A stretch of 64,000 nt of DNA from a virus (Duplodnaviria; Caudoviricetes): IMG/VR virus record IMGVR_UViG_3300021400_001615, positions 32,001 to 96,000 of that record; one strand, given 5' to 3'. A program made the translations under genes and the position numbers. Positions within the stretch are counted from its first letter, which is position 1, and the number at the start of each line of letters is the position of its first letter. Under the pieces are notes generated by a model that was given only the letters and a program-made list of their open reading frames with translations, had not been told where the DNA came from and ran no database searches. Below, in pieces: positions 23,340-57,661 of the stretch.

Positions 23340-26291
23340 TTAATTCTCAAATAATTCTCTCCACATCTCGGCATATTCCTTTTCCGTTGCAAAAAGGAAG
23401 TATACGCCACCGATGTTTCCCATATACCCGGATGCAACCGGGTATCCTTTCATTTCCATTTTTTACTACCTACCTTTCCAACCGGATGATCACCACACCG
23501 TCTTCCGGGCTAAACACGGTGGACGTAGTTGTAGTAATCGAATAGTACCGGTTTCCTTTGACTTCCTTTGTGCGGCACTCTGCCTTGCGGATGTAGTGCA
23601 GAATATCGTGCAATACTTCCGGATCATCCGGCACATCATATCCGGCATTAATCAGCCCTTTGACAATATCCCGGGCGAGCGACTCCGTTTTCCTCTGCCT
23701 TTCTGTAGCAAAGAACACGTCTTTGCCTTTGAAAAAGAACGTAAATCCTTTCATTTCTTTTCCTCCTTTTGTTAAATTCATGGTTACAATAATGCCCACA
23801 AAAGACTCAATTTCCCTTGTGGACACAATCTAATCATGAATTATTTATTGTTCTTCCATTCTTCAATGGCAGCATAAATATCGCTTGTCCATACTTCCAT
23901 TTAATCATCTCCTTTCATTACAAATTTATTGACTTCCGGGCTTCCGACCAAACATAGTTCACAGTATATGCCGGAATTCCCCTCACGACTTCCGCCGGGA
24001 GATTTTCCTTGTTATCACCGTACACAGACAGTAATTCGCATGCGGTGACAAACAATTTTCGTAATATGGGATCGTATTCAAATGCCTTTGGCCAGGCTCT
24101 CATAATTTCACCCCCTTTTTTCCCTCATCACAAACTGGATGAAGTCTTCGACCTGCCCTGTCTGCCGGAGAAACTTTGCGGCATAATCCGCAATCATATT
24201 CTCAATCTCGGAAAGATTTAATCCCGCCCACGGGTCTTCTGGTTCCTCATTGTAGAAGAGAATAATCTCTTCTACATAGTCATCCGGCTCCGGCATGACA
24301 ACTTCCTCTTCCGGACGCAGGTTTTTTCCGGCACGGCGGTTCTTCCGGGTGTACGCCTTAGCGCCTTTGCTATACTCACGGAACCCGGTATCATGCACGT
24401 TGCCGTGCTTATCGATGAAATCAAAGGAATACTCAGCCTTCTCCTGCATCCGTCTCTTTGCACGTCGAGTCGCCTTGCGGCGGTCTGCACGGTTGCCTGA
24501 TCGCCGAGTTCCTCTGTATTCCAGTTCATCCGCCGGATCCTCAAACATTTCTCCAACCGTCTTGATTTTAAACATAGTTTTCCTCCTGTTTAATTATTTT
24601 CTTCGATGATAGTATCGTTGTCGATGACATAGTATTCGATCCATTCTATATCATCATAACTGCCCGGCACGTACAGTGCATATGTACACACTATTTCTCC
24701 GGGATTGATAAACTCCGGATAGTGAATATAATCATACTCACTATCTGTGTTTATAATTTGCCCATTCCCATCAGCATCCAAGCACACGCCTATGATGCGC
24801 TCGGCAATTCGGGCGTTGCCAACAAGTTGCGCCATTGTAAGATCATCGGTATCTACAAAGGTGATACCGTCAATTCCACAGCGTTCGGCAAAGTCCTCCT
24901 CCAGTTCAAGACCGGAGGAATAATCTTCGTACCAGTCACCGGATAACTCAGCTGCCGGGATCGGCGACACGAAACAAAGTGCCGCCATTGCTACCGCTCC
25001 GGTGAGAACGGTAGCGGCAAAAATCTTGTCGTTACTCTTCATACTCATCCTCCTCCCAGTCTTCGTCTATAGAAAGTAATTCTACATCCTGCCCGAATTT
25101 GGTCCAGACAGTACCGGCATTATACGCCAGACCGTCTTCTGTGAATTCCTGACGGACAATGTACGCATCGCCGCCGGTATTCTCCGCAAGGAAAGCTTCT
25201 GCAATCCTTCTGAGAATATCCTCGTTGTTGGCAATCTCTGTACGACTCACGCCGCAATAATTGCCATCTGACAGGCCCTCCCTGTCATAGGTGCCGCCGG
25301 AAGCATGCTGACGGCGTTGATAAACTCTGAGATATTGCCAGTGCCAGCCTTAAACATGTCAAACGCCATGCCAACTTCGCCGAGAACCTGTACCCGACGA
25401 TGATGGATCCTGGCGTGAGAGTCGGCGATTGCCATGTTTACGGAGTCTGGCAGAATGCCAGCTATCCCGTTGGAAATAGCTTCGATGTTGGCAAGCTCCA
25501 CACGGTTCTTGCCATCAATTTTGCGTGCTTTAGCCGTCTTGATTTGGACGGGCGTTCTTGTCAGGCTCATGATATCCTCCAGTACCCACTATCAGCCGGA
25601 ACTTTCCCGTTGTCCGCCACCCACGACGTGGACGTTGTGGTTTTCGGGTGGCATGGGGGAAGGCTTACGCCTTCTTATTCCCCTTTTTCGCCTTGGGAGC
25701 ATATTTCTCAGCCATGATGGGCGGGACCTGCTGCTTTTTGATAGTTCCGGCGTTGACCATAGCTTCATAGGTCTTCATGAAGACCATCTTGTAGCAGTTA
25801 TTGCCGTTGAAACTAGTCACGCAGGAACCCTCGGTGCGGACGAACTTCTTAACATCACCACGCTCACCGGCGGCATTCAGAATCTCCGGCACAAGGTAGC
25901 TACCGTCAACGTCGAGATTATAGGCGTTGAACCAGTCGATGATTGCATCCTCAGCAGTTTTGCCAGCCTTGCCCTTTGCAAAGTCCGCAAGAGCTTTTTT
26001 TAGGGTCTTGTCAGCTTCGGTCGGCGCATAGGTGGCTTCAGCTTTGATCTGATCCTTGCGCTCTTTGTCGAGCTGGGCAATCCGAGCTTCAAACGTGGTG
26101 CGCATCATGGGAATATTGTCCTCAAGACAGGAACCCCTCAGTTTTTCGAGTGCGGCAATGCCCGTTTCAATCTCTTCCTGCTCAGCCTTGAACTTGAGAT
26201 TGATTTCAGAACGCCACACAAAGCATCTCATAAAGTCAACAACCGCAACCGCAAGTTTCTTGTCACCCTTGAACCAGTCAATCCTCTTCAT
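23340..26291 (-). CDS. Earliest leftward hypothetical genes: 23340-23459, 23470-23826, 23918-24103, 24108-24575, 24590-25048, 25032-25250, 25247-25570, 25665-26291
   Basis: Tandem ORFs; 23470-23826 ends in TAG overlapping the RBS of the next 39-aa ORF. Confidence 0.7.
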
Positions 26292-28546: not shown

Positions 28547-29749
28547 ATGCAAGTCCCACAGAAGACGCAGGAACAGGTTGCACGGGAAGTTGTCCCATTT
28601 TATGGTGACCAGCTTATTGCAATTAAAGACAATGACGGTGAAATTTGGGCGGTTATGAACGACATCCTTCGCAACATAGGATTTGCCGACCAGAAAGTTA
28701 ATGATCAGCGCCGCAGTTTGGTAAATGATATTGTAATCAGTAAGTGGGTGAAAATTTTCACCCTCCCCTACCAGGGTACTTTTCGGGAAACAAACTGTAT
28801 TAATAGAAGGGCCATTCCACTTGCCCTCGCCAAAATTTCAATTACGCCAACCATGCGGCGTGACCAGCCAGAACTGGTTTCTAAGCTGATCAGGTACCAG
28901 GAAGAATGTGCCGATGTCTTATACAATCATTTTATGAATAAAAACAATCAGGATATGCCGATTACCAGAGAAGAACTCTCCCTCTTCTTAATGGAAACGA
29001 CAAGACTACTGCATCAGCATATTGACTGGATTGAAAAAAGAGACAAAGAGCGTGATGCTTCTATTAATAATATGGTAGATGTCATTAAAATGTTGGCATC
29101 AAACAGAACCGAGCCTTCAACAACTCAGATTCCAAAATTGAGCGCTTTGGACAGAATCAAGTTGGGTTCTGAAGAAGATAAAATTGATCAGCGTAAATGG
29201 CTGCAAGATGTTTGGGCAAACGTTCGCAAGGTCGCCGAAAGAACCGGTTGGAGTACTACAAATGTTTTCAAGAAGGTATATGCAATAATGGACGAGAATG
29301 GCGCGGATACACTCGGCAAATACAAAGTTTATCATTCCAAAACCGGGAAGTCTAAGATTAACATGTGTGCAGAAAACGCATTCCTCCGCAATGATTTTAA
29401 GAAAAGTCTTCTTAAATTAATTAAGGATATTTTCCCGGAAATATATGGAGAAAAGCCGACATCAAAAACTTCAGCAACGAAAAAAATTTCGCCCTCAAGA
29501 AAAATGCTTATGGTCCCGGCGAATGTAAAAGAATTAATTAAAGAATATTCTACTGCTAATAATATCTCTTATACTAAGGCTCAGTTTGAGATTTATGGCA
29601 AGATTGAAAAAGCGAAAAAAGTAAAGATTAATAATCTCGCCATGGCATACGCAAAATCCAACGGATATTCCAACTGCTCAATTGGGTATTATGTTTCTAT
29701 TAATAATGAAATGATGAAACTTTTGAAAAATATAGTTAGGGGTAAATAA
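28547..29749 (+). CDS. Phage antirepressor-like protein (P22 AR N-terminal domain)
   Basis: VPFYGDQLIA...LAKIS...KLIRYQEECADVLYNHF. Confidence 0.75.
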   Translation: MQVPQKTQEQVAREVVPFYGDQLIAIKDNDGEIWAVMNDILRNIGFADQKVNDQRRSLVNDIVISKWVKIFTLPYQGTFRETNCINRRAIPLALAKISITPTMRRDQPELVSKLIRYQEECADVLYNHFMNKNNQDMPITREELSLFLMETTRLLHQHIDWIEKRDKERDASINNMVDVIKMLASNRTEPSTTQIPKLSALDRIKLGSEEDKIDQRKWLQDVWANVRKVAERTGWSTTNVFKKVYAIMDENGADTLGKYKVYHSKTGKSKINMCAENAFLRNDFKKSLLKLIKDIFPEIYGEKPTSKTSATKKISPSRKMLMVPANVKELIKEYSTANNISYTKAQFEIYGKIEKAKKVKINNLAMAYAKSNGYSNCSIGYYVSINNEMMKLLKNIVRGK

Positions 29750-33886: not shown

Positions 33887-33958
33887 AGAGTATGTGGTGT
33901 AACAGTAACACGCCGATTTTGGGAGTCGGAGTATCCCGGGCGGCACGGGCATATTCTA
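33887..33958 (+). tRNA. tRNA-Pro(UGG)-like, non-canonical T arm
   Basis: AGAGTATG/CATATTCT acceptor, GTGT/ACAC D stem, CCGAT-TTTGGGA-GTCGG, T loop GGCGGCA. Confidence 0.65.
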
Positions 33959-47619: not shown

Positions 47620-50600
47620 ATGGCACTTTCTTTTAGAGATTTTAAAAATATGCATGGTATTAGTACTCCCGGAAGAGCAAGAAAAATGTAGAGTGATGTG
47701 ATTATGTTGAATACATGGTGGCAAGATATATAGGCGTAGAATGCTTATATTTATGATTATTACCATGATCAGCTATCTGACGAAGCCCGTCAGTTAAATG
47801 ATCTTCATCCATAGGATGATCCTTATAAAACAGTATTGCCAATTAAGTTTATTCGACATGCTAAATAGACATATGATAAAGACCAGGTAACTTTTTGGTT
47901 ACAAATGTAGCCGGGGCAAGAATGTAATTTAGATTATTATAATGAAATGTTTCGTGATCGTTATGATGCATTATTCCCTATTGGCCTTTTCGTGGATATA
48001 ATGCATGAAGATGGAACATATAATAAATGGCTTATTGTTGATAAGGCTAATTATAATGGGAATCAGTTTCCCACTTTTGAAATATTAAGATGTGATTTTG
48101 TAGCACAGTGGATTTATAACGGACACAAATATTAGTGTCCCGCCGTTTTAAGAAGTCAGAATTCGTAGATTGTGCGCTTCATAAAGGAAACTTTATGTCG
48201 AAAGTTCTCTAATTGCGGGAAACCCCTTAGAGCCAACATGCTAAAGCGGAAGAATGAAATAGGTCTAAACGTAAAAGCTATAAAAAGTTGTTGGATTGGG
48301 CAACCAACGCAGCGAAGTCCTGAACAGGGATGTGTTCAACGAGCAAAGTAAGACAAGTGTCTGAAAACGGGAACCACCTAAATCTATAAAGACATGGTGT
48401 TGATATGCTCTAACCTTATATGAAAATATAAGAAAATTATTTTATATGTTTGATAAGTGTTGCGATTATTATAATATATATAATTTTTCTACTGATTAAC
48501 GACCAGTAGATCATTTCCTGATAATTCTGGCCTCTGGTTGGACTTTAAAATTTAGAGCGTAGAGGATAAAAGCTTGTCCCTTATATCAGTAATGATATAA
48601 GAAAACTCCTTGAATTGCTGGAAATCCCTTAGAGCCGATATACCACAACATGACGTTGCGATTACGTGAGTGTGATGGTTAAAAAACATATTGGATTGGG
48701 TAATCAGCAGCCAAGCCCTGATGAGGGGAAGGTTCAACGACTATGTGACGCAAGTGCGTTCTGCGAGGAGGATCTCTTGGAGATTATGATATAGTCTGAA
48801 CTTTATGCGAAAGCATAAGAAAAATTGTTTATGTCGATTTGATAAAAGGATAGGACAGCGGGTTGCAAACCGTTTTATATTACCATAATAGTATAATTAC
48901 TATCTTTTTATATATATATATTACTTTTATGGAGGTAATTTATGGGTAAAAAATTGGTATTATCTACAGAAGAAAAAGAACTTATTGTATCAATGTATAA
49001 AAATGGAAGTAAGTTATCTGATATAGAAAATGCGATAGGTCATTGCGACAAATACATTTATGAAACATTAAATGAGTATGGCATTGAAAAAAATAGAAAA
49101 ACAAAACCAATTTCTTCGGAACAGCTTCAATTAATAATTGATTGTCATAGAGATGGTTTATCATATGAACAAATATCAGAGAAATTAGATAATTATATCT
49201 CATCTACTAGGGTATATGAGATATTAAAAGAAAATGGGGAAACTAACTCATTCTCAATTGATAAAGTTAATTCCATTATAGATTTTCAAAGTAAAGATAA
49301 TCATAGAAAATATTATTTTGATGAACATCTGCTTGATGTTGTTAACACTCCGGATAAGGCGTATTGTATTGGTTTGTTTATGGCAGACGGGTGCAATCAG
49401 TTAGATAAAAGTTATTTTTCTATTGTGTTACAAGCAAGAGATAGAGATATTCTCGACAAAATTAGCATAATGTTCTAGTCTGATTACCCGTTACATTTTC
49501 GTGATTCATCTAAATATGATTATATGGCGCAAGATGTATATACTATTCGTTGGAATTCAAAATATTTTTGTAAGAAATTAAATGAACTGGGAATTGTACC
49601 GAATAAGAGTCTTATATTAGAGTTTCCATACTGGTTGGATAGACATTTGATTCCATATTTGATTAAAGGCTACATAGATGGGGATGGATGGATAAATACA
49701 AATCAAATTGGATTTATGAGTACAGAAAAGTTTTGTATTGGTGTACAAGAATATTTAAATTCAATAGGTATATCTTCGTATATAATGGATATGAAAAGAC
49801 ATTATAGCAACCAGACAAAAGAGTTGCTTATAAGTGGCAGAAACAATATATGGCCATTAGCCAGAATAATGTTTTCACATGGAAATCTATACTTAAACCG
49901 AAAATATCAAAAATATATTGATTATAAGTTTATTGATATAAACAATTCTTTATTGAATTAACGACTCAATAGAGTAACATATTTGTAGCAGAAATTTGCT
50001 GTCCCGATGAACCGTGATACAGAAACACTATTTTATAATATTCGTATGATCATAGATTCTAAAGTAGAGACCGAGAAACGTGCATGGCTCATTTCAAAGG
50101 TAAATCGTATATCACCGAATGGTATATGTCGTGTCACATTAACTCAGGATACATATGATCAACATACTGATTATATAGAAAAAGATGAAGACGGTAATAT
50201 TATTGGAATGTGGGCAAATTACTTTAAGAGTAATGTAGAACCAACGCCGGTGGAAATTCAGGATGATACAGTACCACACTACTCTTCCATCACATCTAAA
50301 ATTACTTGCTCTGGCAAACCGCAATTTAAAATTGGTGGCTCAGCTAAAACATTCACAGTTACCTATTACGATTCTAATAATGAAGAACTATATGACCATA
50401 GCGTTGGCAATTGGTCGTTAACTATTGATAACGAATTGGTTGCGTCAGATGTCGTTTCTATTGAAGAAGTTGCTGATTCTTCAAATAAGATTAAGATTAA
50501 ATTTCTTGGTGACGATTCGTATATAGGCAAAGTATTAACTATAACTAATACTTCGGATGATGTAGTTTCATCTCTTGAAGTTGAAATTATTGCACTTTGA
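47620..50600 (+). CDS. Neck/head-closure-like protein, 402 aa: join(47620-48166, 48521-48567, 49986-50600)
   Basis: Removing two group I introns gives an open frame ...VLRSQNS-Y-NSGLWLDFKI*SVED-*QKFAVPMNRDTE...; several TAG. Confidence 0.8.
48167..48520 (+). mobile_element. Group I intron (no ORF)
   Basis: P AATTGCGGGAA, Q AACGCAGC, R GTTCAACGAGCA, S GATATGCTC; exon ends in T, intron ends in G. Confidence 0.85.
48568..49985 (+). mobile_element. Group I intron carrying a homing endonuclease
   Basis: P AATTGCTGGAA, Q AATCAGCAGC, R GTTCAACGACTA, S GATATAGTCT; T and G boundaries restore the frame. Confidence 0.9.
48942..49961 (+). CDS. Intron-encoded LAGLIDADG endonuclease, 339 aa, one TAG (49476)
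   Basis: IGLFMADG and IKGYIDGDG motifs; two track ORFs join in frame. Confidence 0.88.
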
Positions 50601-52064: not shown

Positions 52065-53347
52065 ATGGCTTTTAAACTTGGTAATCATTATATTGACGAA
52101 ATTCTTTATGGCGTAGCTGAGAAAAATGGCAACATTGAGTACGCTCTTGACTAGCTGAGTTCTGCTTCTATCGAGATCAGTGCCGAATCTACGGATATCA
52201 CTGATAAGAAGGGGAATATCATCCGTACAACATATCGTTCGAAGACTGGTACATTTACTGCGACGAACGCTCTGCTTCATCCTGCGGCTATTAATGCTCA
52301 GTCTGGTAGCCCGATTAAATACGCATCTGCTGGTGAGGGCGGCGCTATTGTAATGCCTAAGATCATGGTTGCTGCTGCTGGCGAGGAAGTCACCATTGGT
52401 GAATATACTCAGGGTAGCGTTCGTGTAATTGGTCTGTTTGGTAATGGCGCTAATGATGTTGCGCTTGATGCTGAGGCCGTTGCTGCTGCTATTACTGGTA
52501 CTGGTGCAAACACCAAACTTCAGCTTCCGAAGACCGATGGTGGCCCCACTCAGTATCTTGTTAAGTTCGAAAGAAGCGTCACCTCTGGTGCTATGCTTCA
52601 GAATACTACTGCTGTAAGCTCCGATCTGGTTAAGCTTACCCTGTTCTGTGCAATGGGCGATCCTTGTGAAGATTCTCTTCGTCCTTGCTATGTAGTAATT
52701 CCGAGATTTGCTGCCGATCCTTCCATGACCATCTCTCTTGATGCTGAGACTCAGGAAGTTGACTTCAGCGGTAACCTCAACGTGGATTATTGCGCAGGAA
52801 CTTCCAGTTTATATTACATTTATCAATATATTTGCATTTTTAATCGTTGTTTTCAGACAATTGATTAACAATACGGATGGTAAGCATATAGGGAAACTTG
52901 TATGTAATAGTGATTTTCACTGAATTAAGAAACTGAATTGCTGGGACATCCTAAAGACAATAGAACTACAACATAATGATGAAATATGCATAAGTGTGAA
53001 TGTTGCGAAAGCGGAAAAAATCTATTGTATGACATATGGTTAAATCCTAAGTGTTGTTAAAAATGGATAATCAGCAGCCAAGCTTTGAATAGAAGAAGGT
53101 TCAACGACTATCCCTCTTGAGGGGAGTAGGTCATAAGCGTTTGATGACCGAAGTGGTTTCGCCTAACCCGCAGCAATGCGGTATGGATAAGATATAGTCT
53201 GTGCTTACATGAAAATGTAAGAAGTTCTTTGGAGAACTGTATGAAGAGTAGCGTCTTCGTATGAACATATATTTAAAATAAGAAATTATTTTAAATTATA
53301 AGTATCCCGATGAAGATCTTGTTATTAGTGGCACCTCTGTTGCCTAA
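52065..53347 (+). CDS. Major tail (tube) protein, 267 aa: join(52065-52823, 53303-53347), one TAG
   Basis: MAFKLG...YALD*LSSASIEISAESTDITDKKG; spliced end LYYIY-YPDEDLVISGTSVA. Confidence 0.8.
52824..53302 (+). mobile_element. Group I intron (no ORF)
   Basis: P GAATTGCTGGGA, Q AATCAGCAGCC, R GTTCAACGACTA, S AAGATATAGTCT. Confidence 0.88.
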
Positions 53348-53512
53348 TTTAACAAAACGATTTTTAGAAGATAATTTTAGCGCTCCACAACATTTAAATT
53401 GTGGGGCGCATTTCAAAATAAATAGGTTGGTGTCATGAGCCAACTGACAAGAGAGGGAACACCTACCCTCTCTTTTATTTTGTCGAATTTAGGTGATTCA
53501 TTAAGAGGTGAA

Positions 53513-54679
53513 ATGAATATGAAAAAAAGTTTTGAGCAATTTTGCAAAGATACGAACAATTATGATTTATTAAATTTGTGGGATAGCGAATTAAACAAAA
53601 CAGATCCTAAATCTGTAAGTTATAGCACAACTAAAAAATATTGGTTTATGTGTCCAAATGGCTTACATGAATCGAGACAGATTTGTGTTGGTAATGTTAC
53701 AAATGGATATAAAACAAGAGGTTGTTATTGCATATGCCATGCGTGTAACTCTATAGGCCAATATATTATAAATAAATATGGTAAGAAGTACTTAGATGCA
53801 ATTTGGTCTAATAAAAATCAGAAATCATATTATGACATAGATAAATCAAGTGCAACCAAGATATGGCTTAAGTGCATAAATGATGATACTCACGATGATT
53901 ATGATGTGACCGCCAATAATTATTCTAGTGGTCATCAGAAATGTCCGTATTGCACCGGTCAGCGAACGTGTTTAACTAATTCGTTTGGTTATAAACATCC
54001 AGAATATGTTGGCGTATGGTCTGATAAAAATTCGTTTAGCCCTTTTGAGCGTTCATATGGCAGTAAGGATTATGCGTGGTTCAAATGTGAGAATGGTATA
54101 CATAATGAATACAAAAAACGCATTAGAGATATAAATTATACAAAGTATATCTGTCCGGAATGTGCAAAGGAAAAGGCTATTAGTAATATACCAAGGGGCG
54201 AGGACTCTCCGCAATGGAGAGGCGGCATTTTAAAGGATAGTCAAAGAATTAGGAATTCTAAAGAATATTCTGAATGGAGGATAAATGTATTTAAAAAGGA
54301 TTGGTTTACTTGTCAATGCTGTGGTGTCGGAAATAATATACAGGCACATCATATAAAACCATTTTCGCAGTATGAAGAATCACGATTAGAAATAAGGAAC
54401 GGTATGTGTCTGTGTGAATTGTGTCATCAAAGTAAGAAAGCTAATTCTTTCCATAATATTTATGGTACTCATAATAATACTCCATCTCAGCTTGAGGAAT
54501 ATATTAATAACAGGCGCAAACAGCTTGGTATTAATATACCGTTTTCTTTAGATTCTTATTTATCTGGTAACATATTAAAACCGGGTGATGTAACTATCAA
54601 TGAAGAAATTCCCTGGATTTTTGATACAATAAGTATCAACGATCTTAAATTTGAAAATAACAGTGATATAGCTGTTTGA
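53513..54679 (+). CDS. Free-standing Zn-finger/HNH homing endonuclease
   Basis: Repeated W.KC..H...CPYC units; CQCCG...AHHIKP...NG.CLC..CH. Confidence 0.8.
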   Translation: MNMKKSFEQFCKDTNNYDLLNLWDSELNKTDPKSVSYSTTKKYWFMCPNGLHESRQICVGNVTNGYKTRGCYCICHACNSIGQYIINKYGKKYLDAIWSNKNQKSYYDIDKSSATKIWLKCINDDTHDDYDVTANNYSSGHQKCPYCTGQRTCLTNSFGYKHPEYVGVWSDKNSFSPFERSYGSKDYAWFKCENGIHNEYKKRIRDINYTKYICPECAKEKAISNIPRGEDSPQWRGGILKDSQRIRNSKEYSEWRINVFKKDWFTCQCCGVGNNIQAHHIKPFSQYEESRLEIRNGMCLCELCHQSKKANSFHNIYGTHNNTPSQLEEYINNRRKQLGINIPFSLDSYLSGNILKPGDVTINEEIPWIFDTISINDLKFENNSDIAV

Positions 54680-54725: not shown

Positions 54726-55151
54726 ATGCAAAAATCAAAAGAAAGAACATGTCTTATGTGTGGAACCAAGTATCAATGGTGTATTCATTGTAAAGATACC
54801 AGGCCGGATGAGGGCTGGCGTTTTCTTTATCATGACGAGAAGTGCAGAGACATGAGTGAAATATGGTATGCATATAGAGGTAAAGAGATTTCAAAGGCTG
54901 AAGCCAAAGAAAAAATGAGTGCGTTGAAGCCGAATATTGATGATGTATTGAAATATACTTCTATTGCGGCTAAAGAAATTAGAGAAATTTTCGATGTTCC
55001 AGAAGAGCAGGAAGTAGTTGAAAATGAAATTACTAATCATGAAGAAAGCAATGATGTTGTCGAAGACGCTGAGGTTGCAAAAGAAGATAATTTTGCGCAA
55101 CATACAGTAAAACATTTTGATAATAAGCATGATTATAGAAAGAAAAAATAA
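54726..55151 (+). CDS. Hypothetical Cys-motif protein
   Basis: CLMCG..Y.WC..C. Confidence 0.7.
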   Translation: MQKSKERTCLMCGTKYQWCIHCKDTRPDEGWRFLYHDEKCRDMSEIWYAYRGKEISKAEAKEKMSALKPNIDDVLKYTSIAAKEIREIFDVPEEQEVVENEITNHEESNDVVEDAEVAKEDNFAQHTVKHFDNKHDYRKKK

Positions 55152-55199
55152 TTGTGAATTTGATTAAAAAATACTTAGCGATTGAAAATATCGTAATAC

Positions 55200-55236
55200 G
55201 GGGTAGCCAATTCACAATTTGGTTACCCCATTTTTT
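55200..55236 (+). terminator. Rho-independent terminator
   Basis: GGGGTAGCCAA/TTGGTTACCCC stem plus T tract. Confidence 0.7.
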
Positions 55237-55245
55237 ACGTTTTAT

Positions 55246-55549
55246 AGCCCCTTAGCATAATTTGGTAATGCACCGGTCTCTTAGCTTAATTTGGACACCT
55301 AGATACGAAAGGTCTAGTGTGAATTGTGCCTAATTCGACGAAACTCTCATATGAGACAACGACGAGCTAAATCAAAATATATTTTTGTAAATGTGTAGAG
55401 ACTATATAGCACACATCTAAGTCCTATCGGATATGATGAAGAAATAGTCCAGACCACAACGCATATGCGGCTATGGTGACATAGAGTGGTAAGAAAACCG
55501 TGATATCCCTCTGAAGGAGGTTATCTGGGTTCAAATCCCAGGGGGGCTG
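55246..55549 (+). tRNA. Amber suppressor tRNA(CUA): join(55246-55281, 55494-55549)
   Basis: AGCCCCT/GGGGGCT acceptor, GCAT/ATGC D stem, spliced loop CTCT|AAA, CTGGG-TTCAAAT-CCCAG T arm. Confidence 0.85.
55282..55493 (+). mobile_element. Compact group I intron (212 nt) in the tRNA anticodon
   Basis: IGS TTTGGA, P AATTCGACGAA, Q AACGACGAGC, R GTAGAGACTA, S AAGAAATAGTCC, terminal G 55493. Confidence 0.85.
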
Positions 55550-55623
55550 CTATGAATACAAGATAATAAAAATGGAGCGATTGTTTTTATTCTTGTAAAA
55601 AAAAATAAAAGGAGATAAAAGGT

Positions 55624-56111
55624 ATGAAAGATTATTATAAAAATACTCGCAAGTGTATTGACGAATATAACTATGTTTAGGAAAAAATGGCAAATAGTCC
55701 ACATGTTACCGACGAGGTAGAGGATGAATTCGTCCAAAATTTTTGCATCCATTTTGCACATGCACTCATTAAGGATACCGGATTTGGTCAAACATCTCGC
55801 GATGAATTGGAAAGAATTGCCGACATTATTAATGATGTAATTAGATAAGGAGAAAATGTATGGCTGATGAATTCTGGAAAAGAAGTCCGGTAACTGGACG
55901 AAAATATAATTATTTTAGCAAGGATATTGTTCACTTGGTTAATTTGGCCTAGTGCGATTATTATATGAATGAATGTGGCGTTATGCCATTGGATATTATG
56001 CTTACGGACGATAGAAAGAATCCCGGCAAGAAAATAGTACTCTTCTGTTTTTCTAAGGAAGAGACACGGGATGCTTATTAGTCCTGGTGTGAAAGAGAAC
56101 ATGACAGATAA
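55624..56111 (+). CDS. Two small recoded hypothetical genes: 55624-55848 and 55860-56111
   Basis: Open only with TAG as sense; each has an RBS. Confidence 0.6.
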
Positions 56112-56629: not shown

Positions 56630-57661
56630 ATGGGTAGAAAAACAGTCTATAACAACATTACATCGCCCCAGTTAATATCTTAGGTATTACCAGAGAACAA
56701 ACAACTTGGCGAGGATTTTATTGAATATTTGCAGTCAATTGATCGTTCTCCGAGTACTATCAATCAGTATAAATCAGATCTCTCTATTTTCTGGGTATGG
56801 AATCTACAAAACAATAATAATAAACCGTTTATCAAAATTACGAAACGTGAGTTTGCCAGGTTCCAAAATTATTGTTTAAATACCTGGGGTTGGAGTTCTA
56901 ATAGAATTCGTAGAGTAAAATCTGTAATATCTTCCATGAGTAACTTTATAGAAAACATATTGGATGAGGAAGAAGAATTTGAGGGGTATCGTGCGGTAAT
57001 TCGAAAGATAGAATCGCCGGTTAAAGAAGAAGTTCGTGAGAAAACAATTTTTGAACCGGAAGAACTTCAAAGGCTTTTGGATCATTTAGTTGATCAAAAG
57101 AAATACATGCAAGCGTGTATACTCGCTCTAGCAATGTATTCCGGTAGACGTAAAGCGGAGTTGCCGAGATTTAAAGTCTCTTATTTTGACGATGAGAATG
57201 TCTTTCTTGGATCCTTATATAAAACGCCAGAAAAGGTAAAGACAAAGGGTCGTGGTTCCAGGGGTAAAATGTTAAACTTATATGTATTAAAGAAAGAATT
57301 TGATCCGTACCTCAAGCTCTGGTTAGATTACAGGAAAGAAAATGGAATTGAAAGTGAGTGGCTATTTCCAGCTGCCGATGATCCAGCTAATCATATTAAG
57401 TCAGAAAATCTTGATAATTGGGTTAATACCTATACGAAATTTTTAGGTAAGCCATTTTACTGGCATAGTCTTCGTCATATGTTTTGCACCCAATGTTTAA
57501 AGAAGAACCTTCCTTCTTCCGTTGTCCAGGAAATTATTGGTTGGGAATCTGCCGATATGGTTAATCTTTATAATGATACAACTACAGAAGAAACGCTTGC
57601 CCAGTATTTTGATGAAAATGGTATAAAGGATGTTAAATCAACAAATCTTTCAGAAATTTAA
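56630..57661 (+). CDS. Tyrosine recombinase, one TAG at codon 18
   Basis: SGRRKAEL, KTKGRG, HSLRH, IIGW, NLY. Confidence 0.88.

Follow-up and report, generated by a model that had tools for sequence, protein, structure and literature searches.

A probable glutamine amber suppressor tRNA gene split inside its anticodon by a group I intron in a large SPbeta-like phage

It is very probable that a phage of Bacillota carries a functional amber suppressor tRNA gene for glutamine that is split between anticodon positions 35 and 36 by a group I intron without an ORF, and that this intron is a mobile passenger tolerated by the gene. The gene lies on the plus strand of a 64,000-nucleotide stretch of DNA (hereafter the window), which spans bases 32001-96000 of an IMG/VR virus record; the record is complete at 160,883 bp and has direct terminal repeats. 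The window terminase is 44% identical to SPbeta YonF, and the portal and other PHROG matches fit a complete genome of a large SPbeta-like siphovirus of Bacillota. From sequence patterns we infer that the intron would splice by itself, that the tRNA would be charged with glutamine and that the intron would be a passenger. The features of the locus, in window coordinates, are the following.

55200..55239, plus strand: terminator-like hairpin of the intrinsic kind, with 11 pairs and a T run, 7 nt 5' of the tRNA
55246..55281, plus strand: tRNA 5' exon, with the 5' strand of the acceptor stem, the D arm, the 5' strand of the anticodon stem and loop positions C32 U33 C34 U35
55282..55493, plus strand: group I intron of 212 nt without an ORF, from Rfam RF00028, covariation and the MFE fold
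55290..55299, plus strand: internal guide, UUU (P10 with AAA of the 3' exon) followed by GGACACC (P1 with exon GGUCUCU, 55275-55281)
55400..55404, plus strand: 5' strand of P7, GACUA, which pairs with UAGUC at 55445-55449 and forms a pseudoknot with P3
55454..55493, plus strand: three-way P9 end, where CCAC/GUGG closes two hairpins (55460-69 and 55471-84) and is followed by UAAG
55494..55549, plus strand: tRNA 3' exon, with A36 A37 A38, the 3' strand of the anticodon stem, the variable and T arms and the 3' strand of the acceptor stem
55502..55524, plus strand: 23-nt variable arm with the inner stem UCC/GGA and the 7-nt loop CUCUGAA (55509-55515)
55624..55848, plus strand: ORF of 74 aa with one in-frame TAG, directly 3' of the split tRNA

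The 5' exon consists of the acceptor strand AGCCCCU, the D arm, the anticodon stem strand CCGGU and CUCU, with the 3' end ...CCGGUCUCU. The 3' exon begins AAAACCGU and supplies AAA, the stem strand ACCG(U), the 23-nt variable arm, the T arm and the acceptor strand GGGGGCU; the discriminator is G55549 and CCA is not encoded. When U55281 is joined to A55494, the loop becomes CUCUAAA with the anticodon CUA in a 92-nt cloverleaf, whose anticodon stem has four pairs plus C.U, and ARAGORN reads the joined exons as a 93-nt tRNA with anticodon cta. Three independent constraints, namely the U.G wobble at the 5' splice site, the terminal G of the intron and the 7-nt anticodon loop, lead to one common junction.

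An earlier note on this DNA had proposed two tRNA halves flanking a 212-nt group I intron, and the Rfam match, the covariation and the ARAGORN result on the joined exons bear this out. It had also expected standard finders to miss the gene. Default ARAGORN indeed reports no tRNA in the window, the same program miscalls the gene when introns are allowed, and the Rfam tRNA model reaches 13.5 bits, on the 3' half only. The call made by ARAGORN with introns, 'Leu aag', was rejected, since it relies on generic boundaries with neither the U.G pair nor the terminal G and is contradicted by the intronless homologues described below.

The Rfam group I model (Intron_gpI, RF00028) matches 55278-55469 in a local scan with a marginal score of 50.5 bits against a cut-off of 50 (E 9e-12), and a filtered scan of the whole window at the cut-off missed the intron. 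The Rfam alignment ends at G55469 because the first P9 hairpin is taken for the last one. We discarded this 3' end, as the 24 nt that make up P9b would remain and no tRNA would result. The terminal guanosine of the intron is G55493, in the 3' end ...GGUAAG. The guide UUUGGA, for which the earlier note had claimed pairing with exon UCU and with AAA of the 3' exon, was placed at 55290-55295, where it accounts for P1 and a possible P10. P1 is made up of U55281.G55293, C55280-G55294 and U55279-A55295 and reaches G55275-C55299 with one C.C mismatch, the guide strand GGACACC occupying 55293-99. The UUU at 55290-92 is able to pair with AAA at 55494-96 (P10), a pairing present only in the subclade of the window gene and its nearest relatives, L164 and the metagenome contig L278, which share the guide AAUUUGGACAC and the same long-arm tRNA. 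The P2 helix spans 55299-55317 with a GAAA loop, P3 pairs 55325-29 with 55409-13, and P4, P5, P6 and P8 were also assigned by hand. The MFE fold recovers P2, P4/P5, P8 and P9, with a weak MFE z-score of -1.55. The intron holds no ORF and no extra sensor domain.

The position of the junction is confirmed by contiguous homologues. A scan of viral contigs by 3' exon architecture, with ARAGORN, gave 37 contiguous tRNA(CUA) genes of 89-92 nt. In all 37, ...CGGUCUCUAAAACCGU... runs unbroken across the intron point and the anticodon arm is identical to that of the joined window sequence. The joined sequence CGGTCTCTAAAACCGT is uninterrupted in the intronless homologues, where the junction halves CACCGGTCTCT and AAAACCGT are contiguous. 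The join of T55281 to A55494 put forward earlier, with insertion at 35/36 and a CUA loop, is thereby confirmed; splicing at another position with a non-CUA anticodon had been named as the refuting case, and no shifted junction reproduces the sequence of the intronless homologues. The best intronless match (L226), on a contig of a Bacillota metagenome-assembled genome, is identical at 78 of 92 positions and throughout the junction region. A scan of the genome collection returned 47 matches, three of them real tRNAs (L226, L236 and L261) and all three intronless, and a metagenome scan returned 16 matches with two real tRNAs. Searches of the viral contigs with the exact exon sequences gave no matches.

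What would such a tRNA decode? From 39.3 kb onward, TAG readthrough joins plus-strand fragments of the window, with five in-frame TAGs in the terminase and 14 in the last ORF of the window. At three of the five terminase sites the TAG stands on a glutamine column (Gln in 120/120, 118/120 and 107/120 homologues), and SPbeta YonF has Gln at one terminase TAG site. Because TAG may already have been translated as Gln in some of the database homologues, the codons were checked directly: tblastn with the standard code showed Gln more often than any other residue opposite the window TAGs in relatives, some of which keep TAG. The codon is also unevenly used as a terminus, since 28 of 68 ORFs of at least 150 aa on the plus strand end in TAG and only one of 56 does so on the minus strand.

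According to ARAGORN and the Rfam tRNA model, the 160,883-bp genome encodes tRNAs for Thr(UGU), Gln(UUG), Met(CAU) and Leu(UAA), together with a degenerate Pro(UGG)-like element and two odd tRNA-like pieces; with the same two tools, no other CUA tRNA was found in the complete genome. The Pro-like element (33888-33957, plus strand), which scores 36.7 bits with the Rfam tRNA model, has a non-canonical T loop and is missed by ARAGORN, was rejected as a second suppressor because its loop is UUUGGGA and its anticodon UGG (Pro), not CUA. Elsewhere in the genome, two hairpins whose 7-nt loop contains CUA (NUCUAAN) proved not to be tRNAs. The odd pieces lie on the minus strand at genome positions 29201-29274 and 29321-29445, in a phage tRNA cluster 2.5-2.8 kb before the window; one of them resembles two half tRNAs enclosed by one acceptor stem and is called 'Phe aaa' with a 49-nt intron by ARAGORN. 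As the split gene is the only CUA tRNA of the phage, the suppressor cannot be made without splicing, and a need for the ribozyme at this step is thus supported.

Covariation supports the stems of the tRNA and the helices of the intron. Among 13 homologous CUA pre-tRNAs, 78.6% of cells are paired, against 38-43% with the partners slid, and 46 pairs show compensatory change, against 18-30. For the four closest split tRNAs the contrast is sharper (91.5% paired versus 32-41%; 32 compensatory pairs versus 2-7). Acceptor, D and T stems all covary: in the 13 homologues the first two are 96-97% paired with compensatory change in 7/7 and 4/4 pairs, and the T stem is 100% paired. Within the intron, helices P2, P3, P8, P9, P9a and P9b covary, with compensatory change in 5/5 pairs of P3 (13 homologues); in the four closest, P9, P9a and P9b are 100% paired and compensatory pairs in P9b number 5/5. 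P7 is invariant and 100% paired in 13/13, the J8/7 strand is likewise invariant, and pairing is lower in P4 and P6 (59-74%). At the 5' splice site CUCU (CTCT) is invariant in 13/13, U-G occupies the splice-site columns in 12/13, and the C-G pair is kept in 13/13.

It is conceivable that the gene has decayed, the intron having lost the ability to splice and the suppressor coming from the host or elsewhere. The marginal Rfam score and the C.C mismatch in P1 would agree with such a loss, as would the A found in place of the terminal G in two family members (L101 and L122). However, all core helices are intact and show compensatory change relative to L278, L164 and L130, P7 and the J8/7 strand do not vary, and the terminase and structural genes depend on TAG readthrough in a genome that offers no alternative. 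Decay is accordingly a highly improbable account of the locus.

For the inserted amino acid, the codon evidence speaks for glutamine, and the acceptor end agrees with it. A weak or mismatched 1-72 pair together with G73 is the acceptor signature of GlnRS. The split tRNA has A1-U72, G2-C71 and G73, exactly as the phage's own tRNA-Gln(UUG); a Bacillota tRNA-Gln has U1-A72 and G73. In the intronless homologues the 1-72 pair is always weak or mismatched and position 73 is G. The Lak suppressor discussed below follows its own Lak tRNA-Gln, which it resembles in U1-A72 and A73. Judged by the codon positions, the suppressor would most likely be charged with glutamine.

A long variable arm with G73 is a hallmark of tRNA-Ser, and SerRS ignores the anticodon, supD being a suppressor of this sort. 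Since the split tRNA has both features and receives no isotype from ARAGORN, it might insert serine, or another amino acid of the long-arm class, instead of glutamine. Such an identity is very unlikely in view of the near-invariant Gln columns on which TAG stands, of the weak 1-72 pair, G2-C71 and G73 that match tRNA-Gln, and of the variable arm itself, whose 7-nt loop copies a Gln anticodon loop and is unlike the arms of tRNA-Ser. The loop mimics that of tRNA-Gln(CUG), with a U33-like U, CUG and AA. In 14 distinct homologues it reads CUCUGAA, CUUUGAA, UUUUGAA or UUCUGAA (that is, CUG or UUG), and the stems that present it differ with compensation (UCC/GGA, UGC/GCA, CUC/GAG, GCC/GGC, ACC/GGU and AUUCC/GGGGU). 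Carriers include L164, L278, L130, L226 and L178-L215. It is possible, if rather doubtful, that the variable-arm loop may act as a decoy Gln anticodon loop for glutamine charging; if functional, the mimic would be a new way to keep amino-acid identity after a change of anticodon.

The split gene sits in the plus-strand late block, directly 3' of a strong terminator, and no convincing sigma-70-type promoter was found between the terminator-like hairpin and the tRNA. The small ORF on its 3' side has a counterpart adjoining the split tRNA of L164 (60% identity, tblastx), and tRNA, intron and ORF may travel together as one module. The entire tRNA-intron segment is absent from the syntenic relatives L005 and L006, and no copies of the tRNA or intron were found at 80 loci surrounding homologues of the neighbouring integrase. 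Both the intronless anticodon-arm motif and the intron core motif are missing from G001-G005, the closest relatives by integrase. The integrase gene is at window 56729-57661. Its relatives (L015-L082) lie mostly 100-300 nt from host tRNA genes for Tyr, Asn and Trp, one of them (L072) beside a host array of 16 tRNAs, and this proximity points to tRNA-gene attachment sites and a temperate lifestyle for the phage group. The split gene was considered as an attP remnant of a host tRNA and rejected as such, because it is complete and bears CUA in a complete genome with terminal repeats.

Further group I introns occur in late genes of the window. Three of them, at 48154-48432, 48557-48819 and 52880-53221 on the plus strand, score above the Rfam cut-off, and endonuclease-like ORFs are found near them at 48939-49961 and 53435-54679 (HNH). 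The intron at 52880 is also present in L006, there without the HNH gene.

How widespread is the intron of the split tRNA? In blastn against GenBank phages it matched only Lak-B1, B3, B6 and B9, with 86 nt of the intron core aligned at 79.5% identity. The Lak-B gene has the 5' exon end ...GUAGA CUCU and, after the intron, AAA UCUAU..., which again produces CUA, in an ordinary short-arm tRNA; Lak-B1 (split gene at L083 1351-1675; MK250020, about 412025-412350) has 30 tRNAs and no CUA tRNA besides this one. In Lak-B2 (L087), B4, B5, B7 and B8 the locus is occupied by a GIY-YIG-like ORF that contains in-frame TAGs and by another tRNA(CUA), which is intronless and of a different kind; Lak-A1 (L088) has an intronless relative of the Lak-B1 tRNA(CUA).

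A scan of IMG/VR with a core motif gave 80 further loci, in about 25 of which the intron lies inside a tRNA gene. Family junctions were set by the rule of a 5' exon U, a terminal G and a 7-nt loop, and the spliced products were then submitted to ARAGORN; alternative junctions from unconstrained splice-site prediction were spurious and gave way to these explicit, checked ones. ARAGORN folded 22/22 spliced products, of which 14 are CUA (about 11 lineages), four Leu(UAA), two Lys(UUU), one Ile(UAU) and one Arg(UCU), where the share of CUA hosts is biased and is no enrichment, since the scan motif was built from two CUA-hosted introns. Besides the Lak-B genomes, about ten viral contigs have a CUA tRNA split by this family. 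The terminal G is found in 20/22 decoded pre-tRNAs and in L278. In two split tRNA(CUA) genes, L101:750-1034:+ and L122:8891-9173:-, an A replaces it (...GUAGUACA, followed by AAC...); these introns may be splicing-defective or may use an unusual 3' splice site.

The relationships among the introns do not track the identity of their host tRNAs. In the intron tree, one Leu-hosted intron and one Lys-hosted intron are sisters (100/100), and L130 has the tRNA type of the window but its intron belongs to the other clade. At loci with a split CUA gene, reading TAG as sense lifts long-ORF coverage by 0.2-0.6 in 14/16, with little effect of reading TGA as sense, and loci with split sense tRNAs show no such gain from TAG. 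At two loci with split Leu and Lys tRNAs, L100 and L121, it is TGA-as-sense that raises long-ORF coverage, from 0.54 to 0.83 and from 0.32 to 0.71, and these may be TGA-recoded phages.

How would the gene work? The precursor would be transcribed together with the plus-strand late genes and the intron would fold so that the guide GGA(CACC) pairs with exon (GGU)CUCU, placing U55281 in the U.G wobble. Guanosine would attack after U55281, and the freed exon would attack after G55493. Ligation would give the loop CUCUAAA and complete the 92-nt tRNA, which would still need 3' trimming and CCA addition before reading TAG as Gln in the terminase, structural and other late genes. The intron would be a mobile element that colonises many phage tRNA genes and not a device evolved for timing, its spread among these genes being tolerated because it splices. 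This status of passenger is drawn from presence/absence and tree patterns, which leave room for a secondary regulatory use in this phage.

The earlier note had gone further, proposing that splicing gates the tRNA needed to read TAG in late genes, so that the ribozyme could time the code switch and keep a prophage from suppressing host stops. The first half of the premise stands, as this is the only CUA tRNA and the late genes need TAG; gating itself is unsupported, and timing and protection of the lysogen find no backing in a family with 37 intronless genes, introns in sense tRNAs and related introns in different tRNAs. A splicing-gated switch would call for a slow or conditional ribozyme, responding to GTP, Mg or a late factor, so that the suppressor appears late and the lysogen spares host stops. 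Some observations are congenial to it. The anticodon is absent before splicing, the split tRNA is the only CUA tRNA in this phage as in Lak-B1, and early minus-strand genes avoid TAG, so that two coding regimes are kept apart; an analogous idea has been published for theta ribozymes beside suppressor tRNAs (PMC10879173). In the sample, however, homologues that share the anticodon arm but lack the intron outnumber split genes about tenfold, the same intron family inhabits sense tRNAs and related introns inhabit different tRNAs. The intron has neither an extra domain nor an ORF. The tRNA introns of Anabaena and Azoarcus readily self-splice, which also counts against gating. Finally, placement among late genes already gives timing, and the position in the plus-strand late block is a simpler explanation of it than splicing. 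A splicing-gated switch is thus quite unlikely. If it were true, self-splicing would set the change from code 11 to code 15, as an RNA-only late timer and a safety catch for the lysogen.

Alternatively, the intron may owe its persistence to protection of the gene: by splitting the conserved CUCUAAA site it could confer immunity to the homing endonucleases of rival phages (collaborative homing or exclusion), or it could keep the precursor hidden from host anticodon nucleases. The exchange in Lak-B2, where a GIY-YIG-like ORF and another intronless tRNA(CUA) occupy the locus, is typical of endonuclease-driven replacement, and the window is intron-rich and encodes an HNH endonuclease (53435-54679). 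Yet no endonuclease is linked to the intron of the split tRNA, and any protection of the RNA would be transient, because splicing gives the same mature tRNA as an intronless gene. A protective role is therefore unlikely, and a tolerated passenger remains the preferred reading.

Group I introns in the anticodon loop are familiar from bacteria and plastids, where those of subgroup IC3 occur in tRNA-Leu(UAA) of cyanobacteria and chloroplasts, in tRNA-fMet, in Azoarcus tRNA-Ile(CAU) and in Agrobacterium tRNA-Arg(CCU). The window intron is like them in being small and ORF-less, in lying in the anticodon loop and in having a short P1 and a 5' exon that ends in U. It differs from the tRNA-Leu(UAA) type in its point of insertion, which is not 34/35 but one nucleotide further, at 35/36 in CUCU^AAA. 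Unlike the bacterial and plastid hosts, the split gene is a stop-codon suppressor without a cellular counterpart and belongs to a phage, and the kinship shown is with phage Leu(UAA) introns: phage tRNA-Leu(UAA) genes with the classical CUU^AAAA (34/35) carry introns that share the core motif and fall in the same tree. According to a 2014 review (PMC3984707), the phage group I introns known by then were all in protein-coding genes.

Phage suppressors that read TAG as Gln (code 15) have been described (Borges et al., 10.1101/2021.08.26.457843; Yutin et al., PMC7886860; Peters et al., PMC9523058). The present phage resembles those phages in having its own CUA tRNA, in using TAG mainly in late and structural genes and in a host presumed to use the standard code; their suppressor tRNAs, however, are contiguous genes. 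A second parallel is offered by theta (HDV-like) ribozymes, which lie beside phage tRNAs, one in five of them suppressors, and have been proposed to help in code switching (Kienbeck et al., PMC10879173). In both cases maturation of a phage suppressor tRNA depends on a ribozyme, but theta ribozymes cut the 3' trailer whereas the group I intron of the window is excised from inside the anticodon. No HDV-family match was found in 55000-55800 at E up to 10. The only one in the window, to the HDV-like ribozyme model RF02682, is at 25582-25652 on the minus strand (46.4 bits, cut-off 44) and adjoins no tRNA.

Insertions in phage tRNA genes were also noted in the Lak genomes by Devoto et al. (PMC6784885). 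Their 'enigmatic' introns interrupt Phe, Gly, Thr and Tyr tRNAs, are short (the Tyr example measures about 93 nt), were predicted with eukaryote settings and received no group I classification. The same genomes are concerned here, and the table of Devoto et al. (PMC6784885) lists no Sup-CTA for B1, B3, B6 and B9, which are the genomes in which a group I-split tRNA(CUA) was found in the present analysis. Full-text searches of the literature turned up no description of a phage suppressor tRNA that is interrupted by a group I intron.

The practical effect of the intron is that the suppressor becomes invisible to tRNA finders. Genomes in which TAG or TGA is clearly a sense codon and no suppressor is detectable have been reported repeatedly, with divergent tRNAs suggested as the reason (Yutin et al., PMC7886860; Zeta crAss paper, PMC12386605), and neither paper mentions intron-split genes as a cause. 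An anticodon split by an intron is a concrete cause in the cases described here. Because split suppressors were hidden in the window phage and in four Lak-B genomes, tRNA annotation and code calling in viromes need an intron-aware step. The idea that ribozymes control a code switch also becomes testable, by comparing wild-type with natural intronless alleles. Together with their relatives in other phages, these genes widen the range of group I tRNA introns to include phages and a new insertion point, with introns that move among tRNA species.
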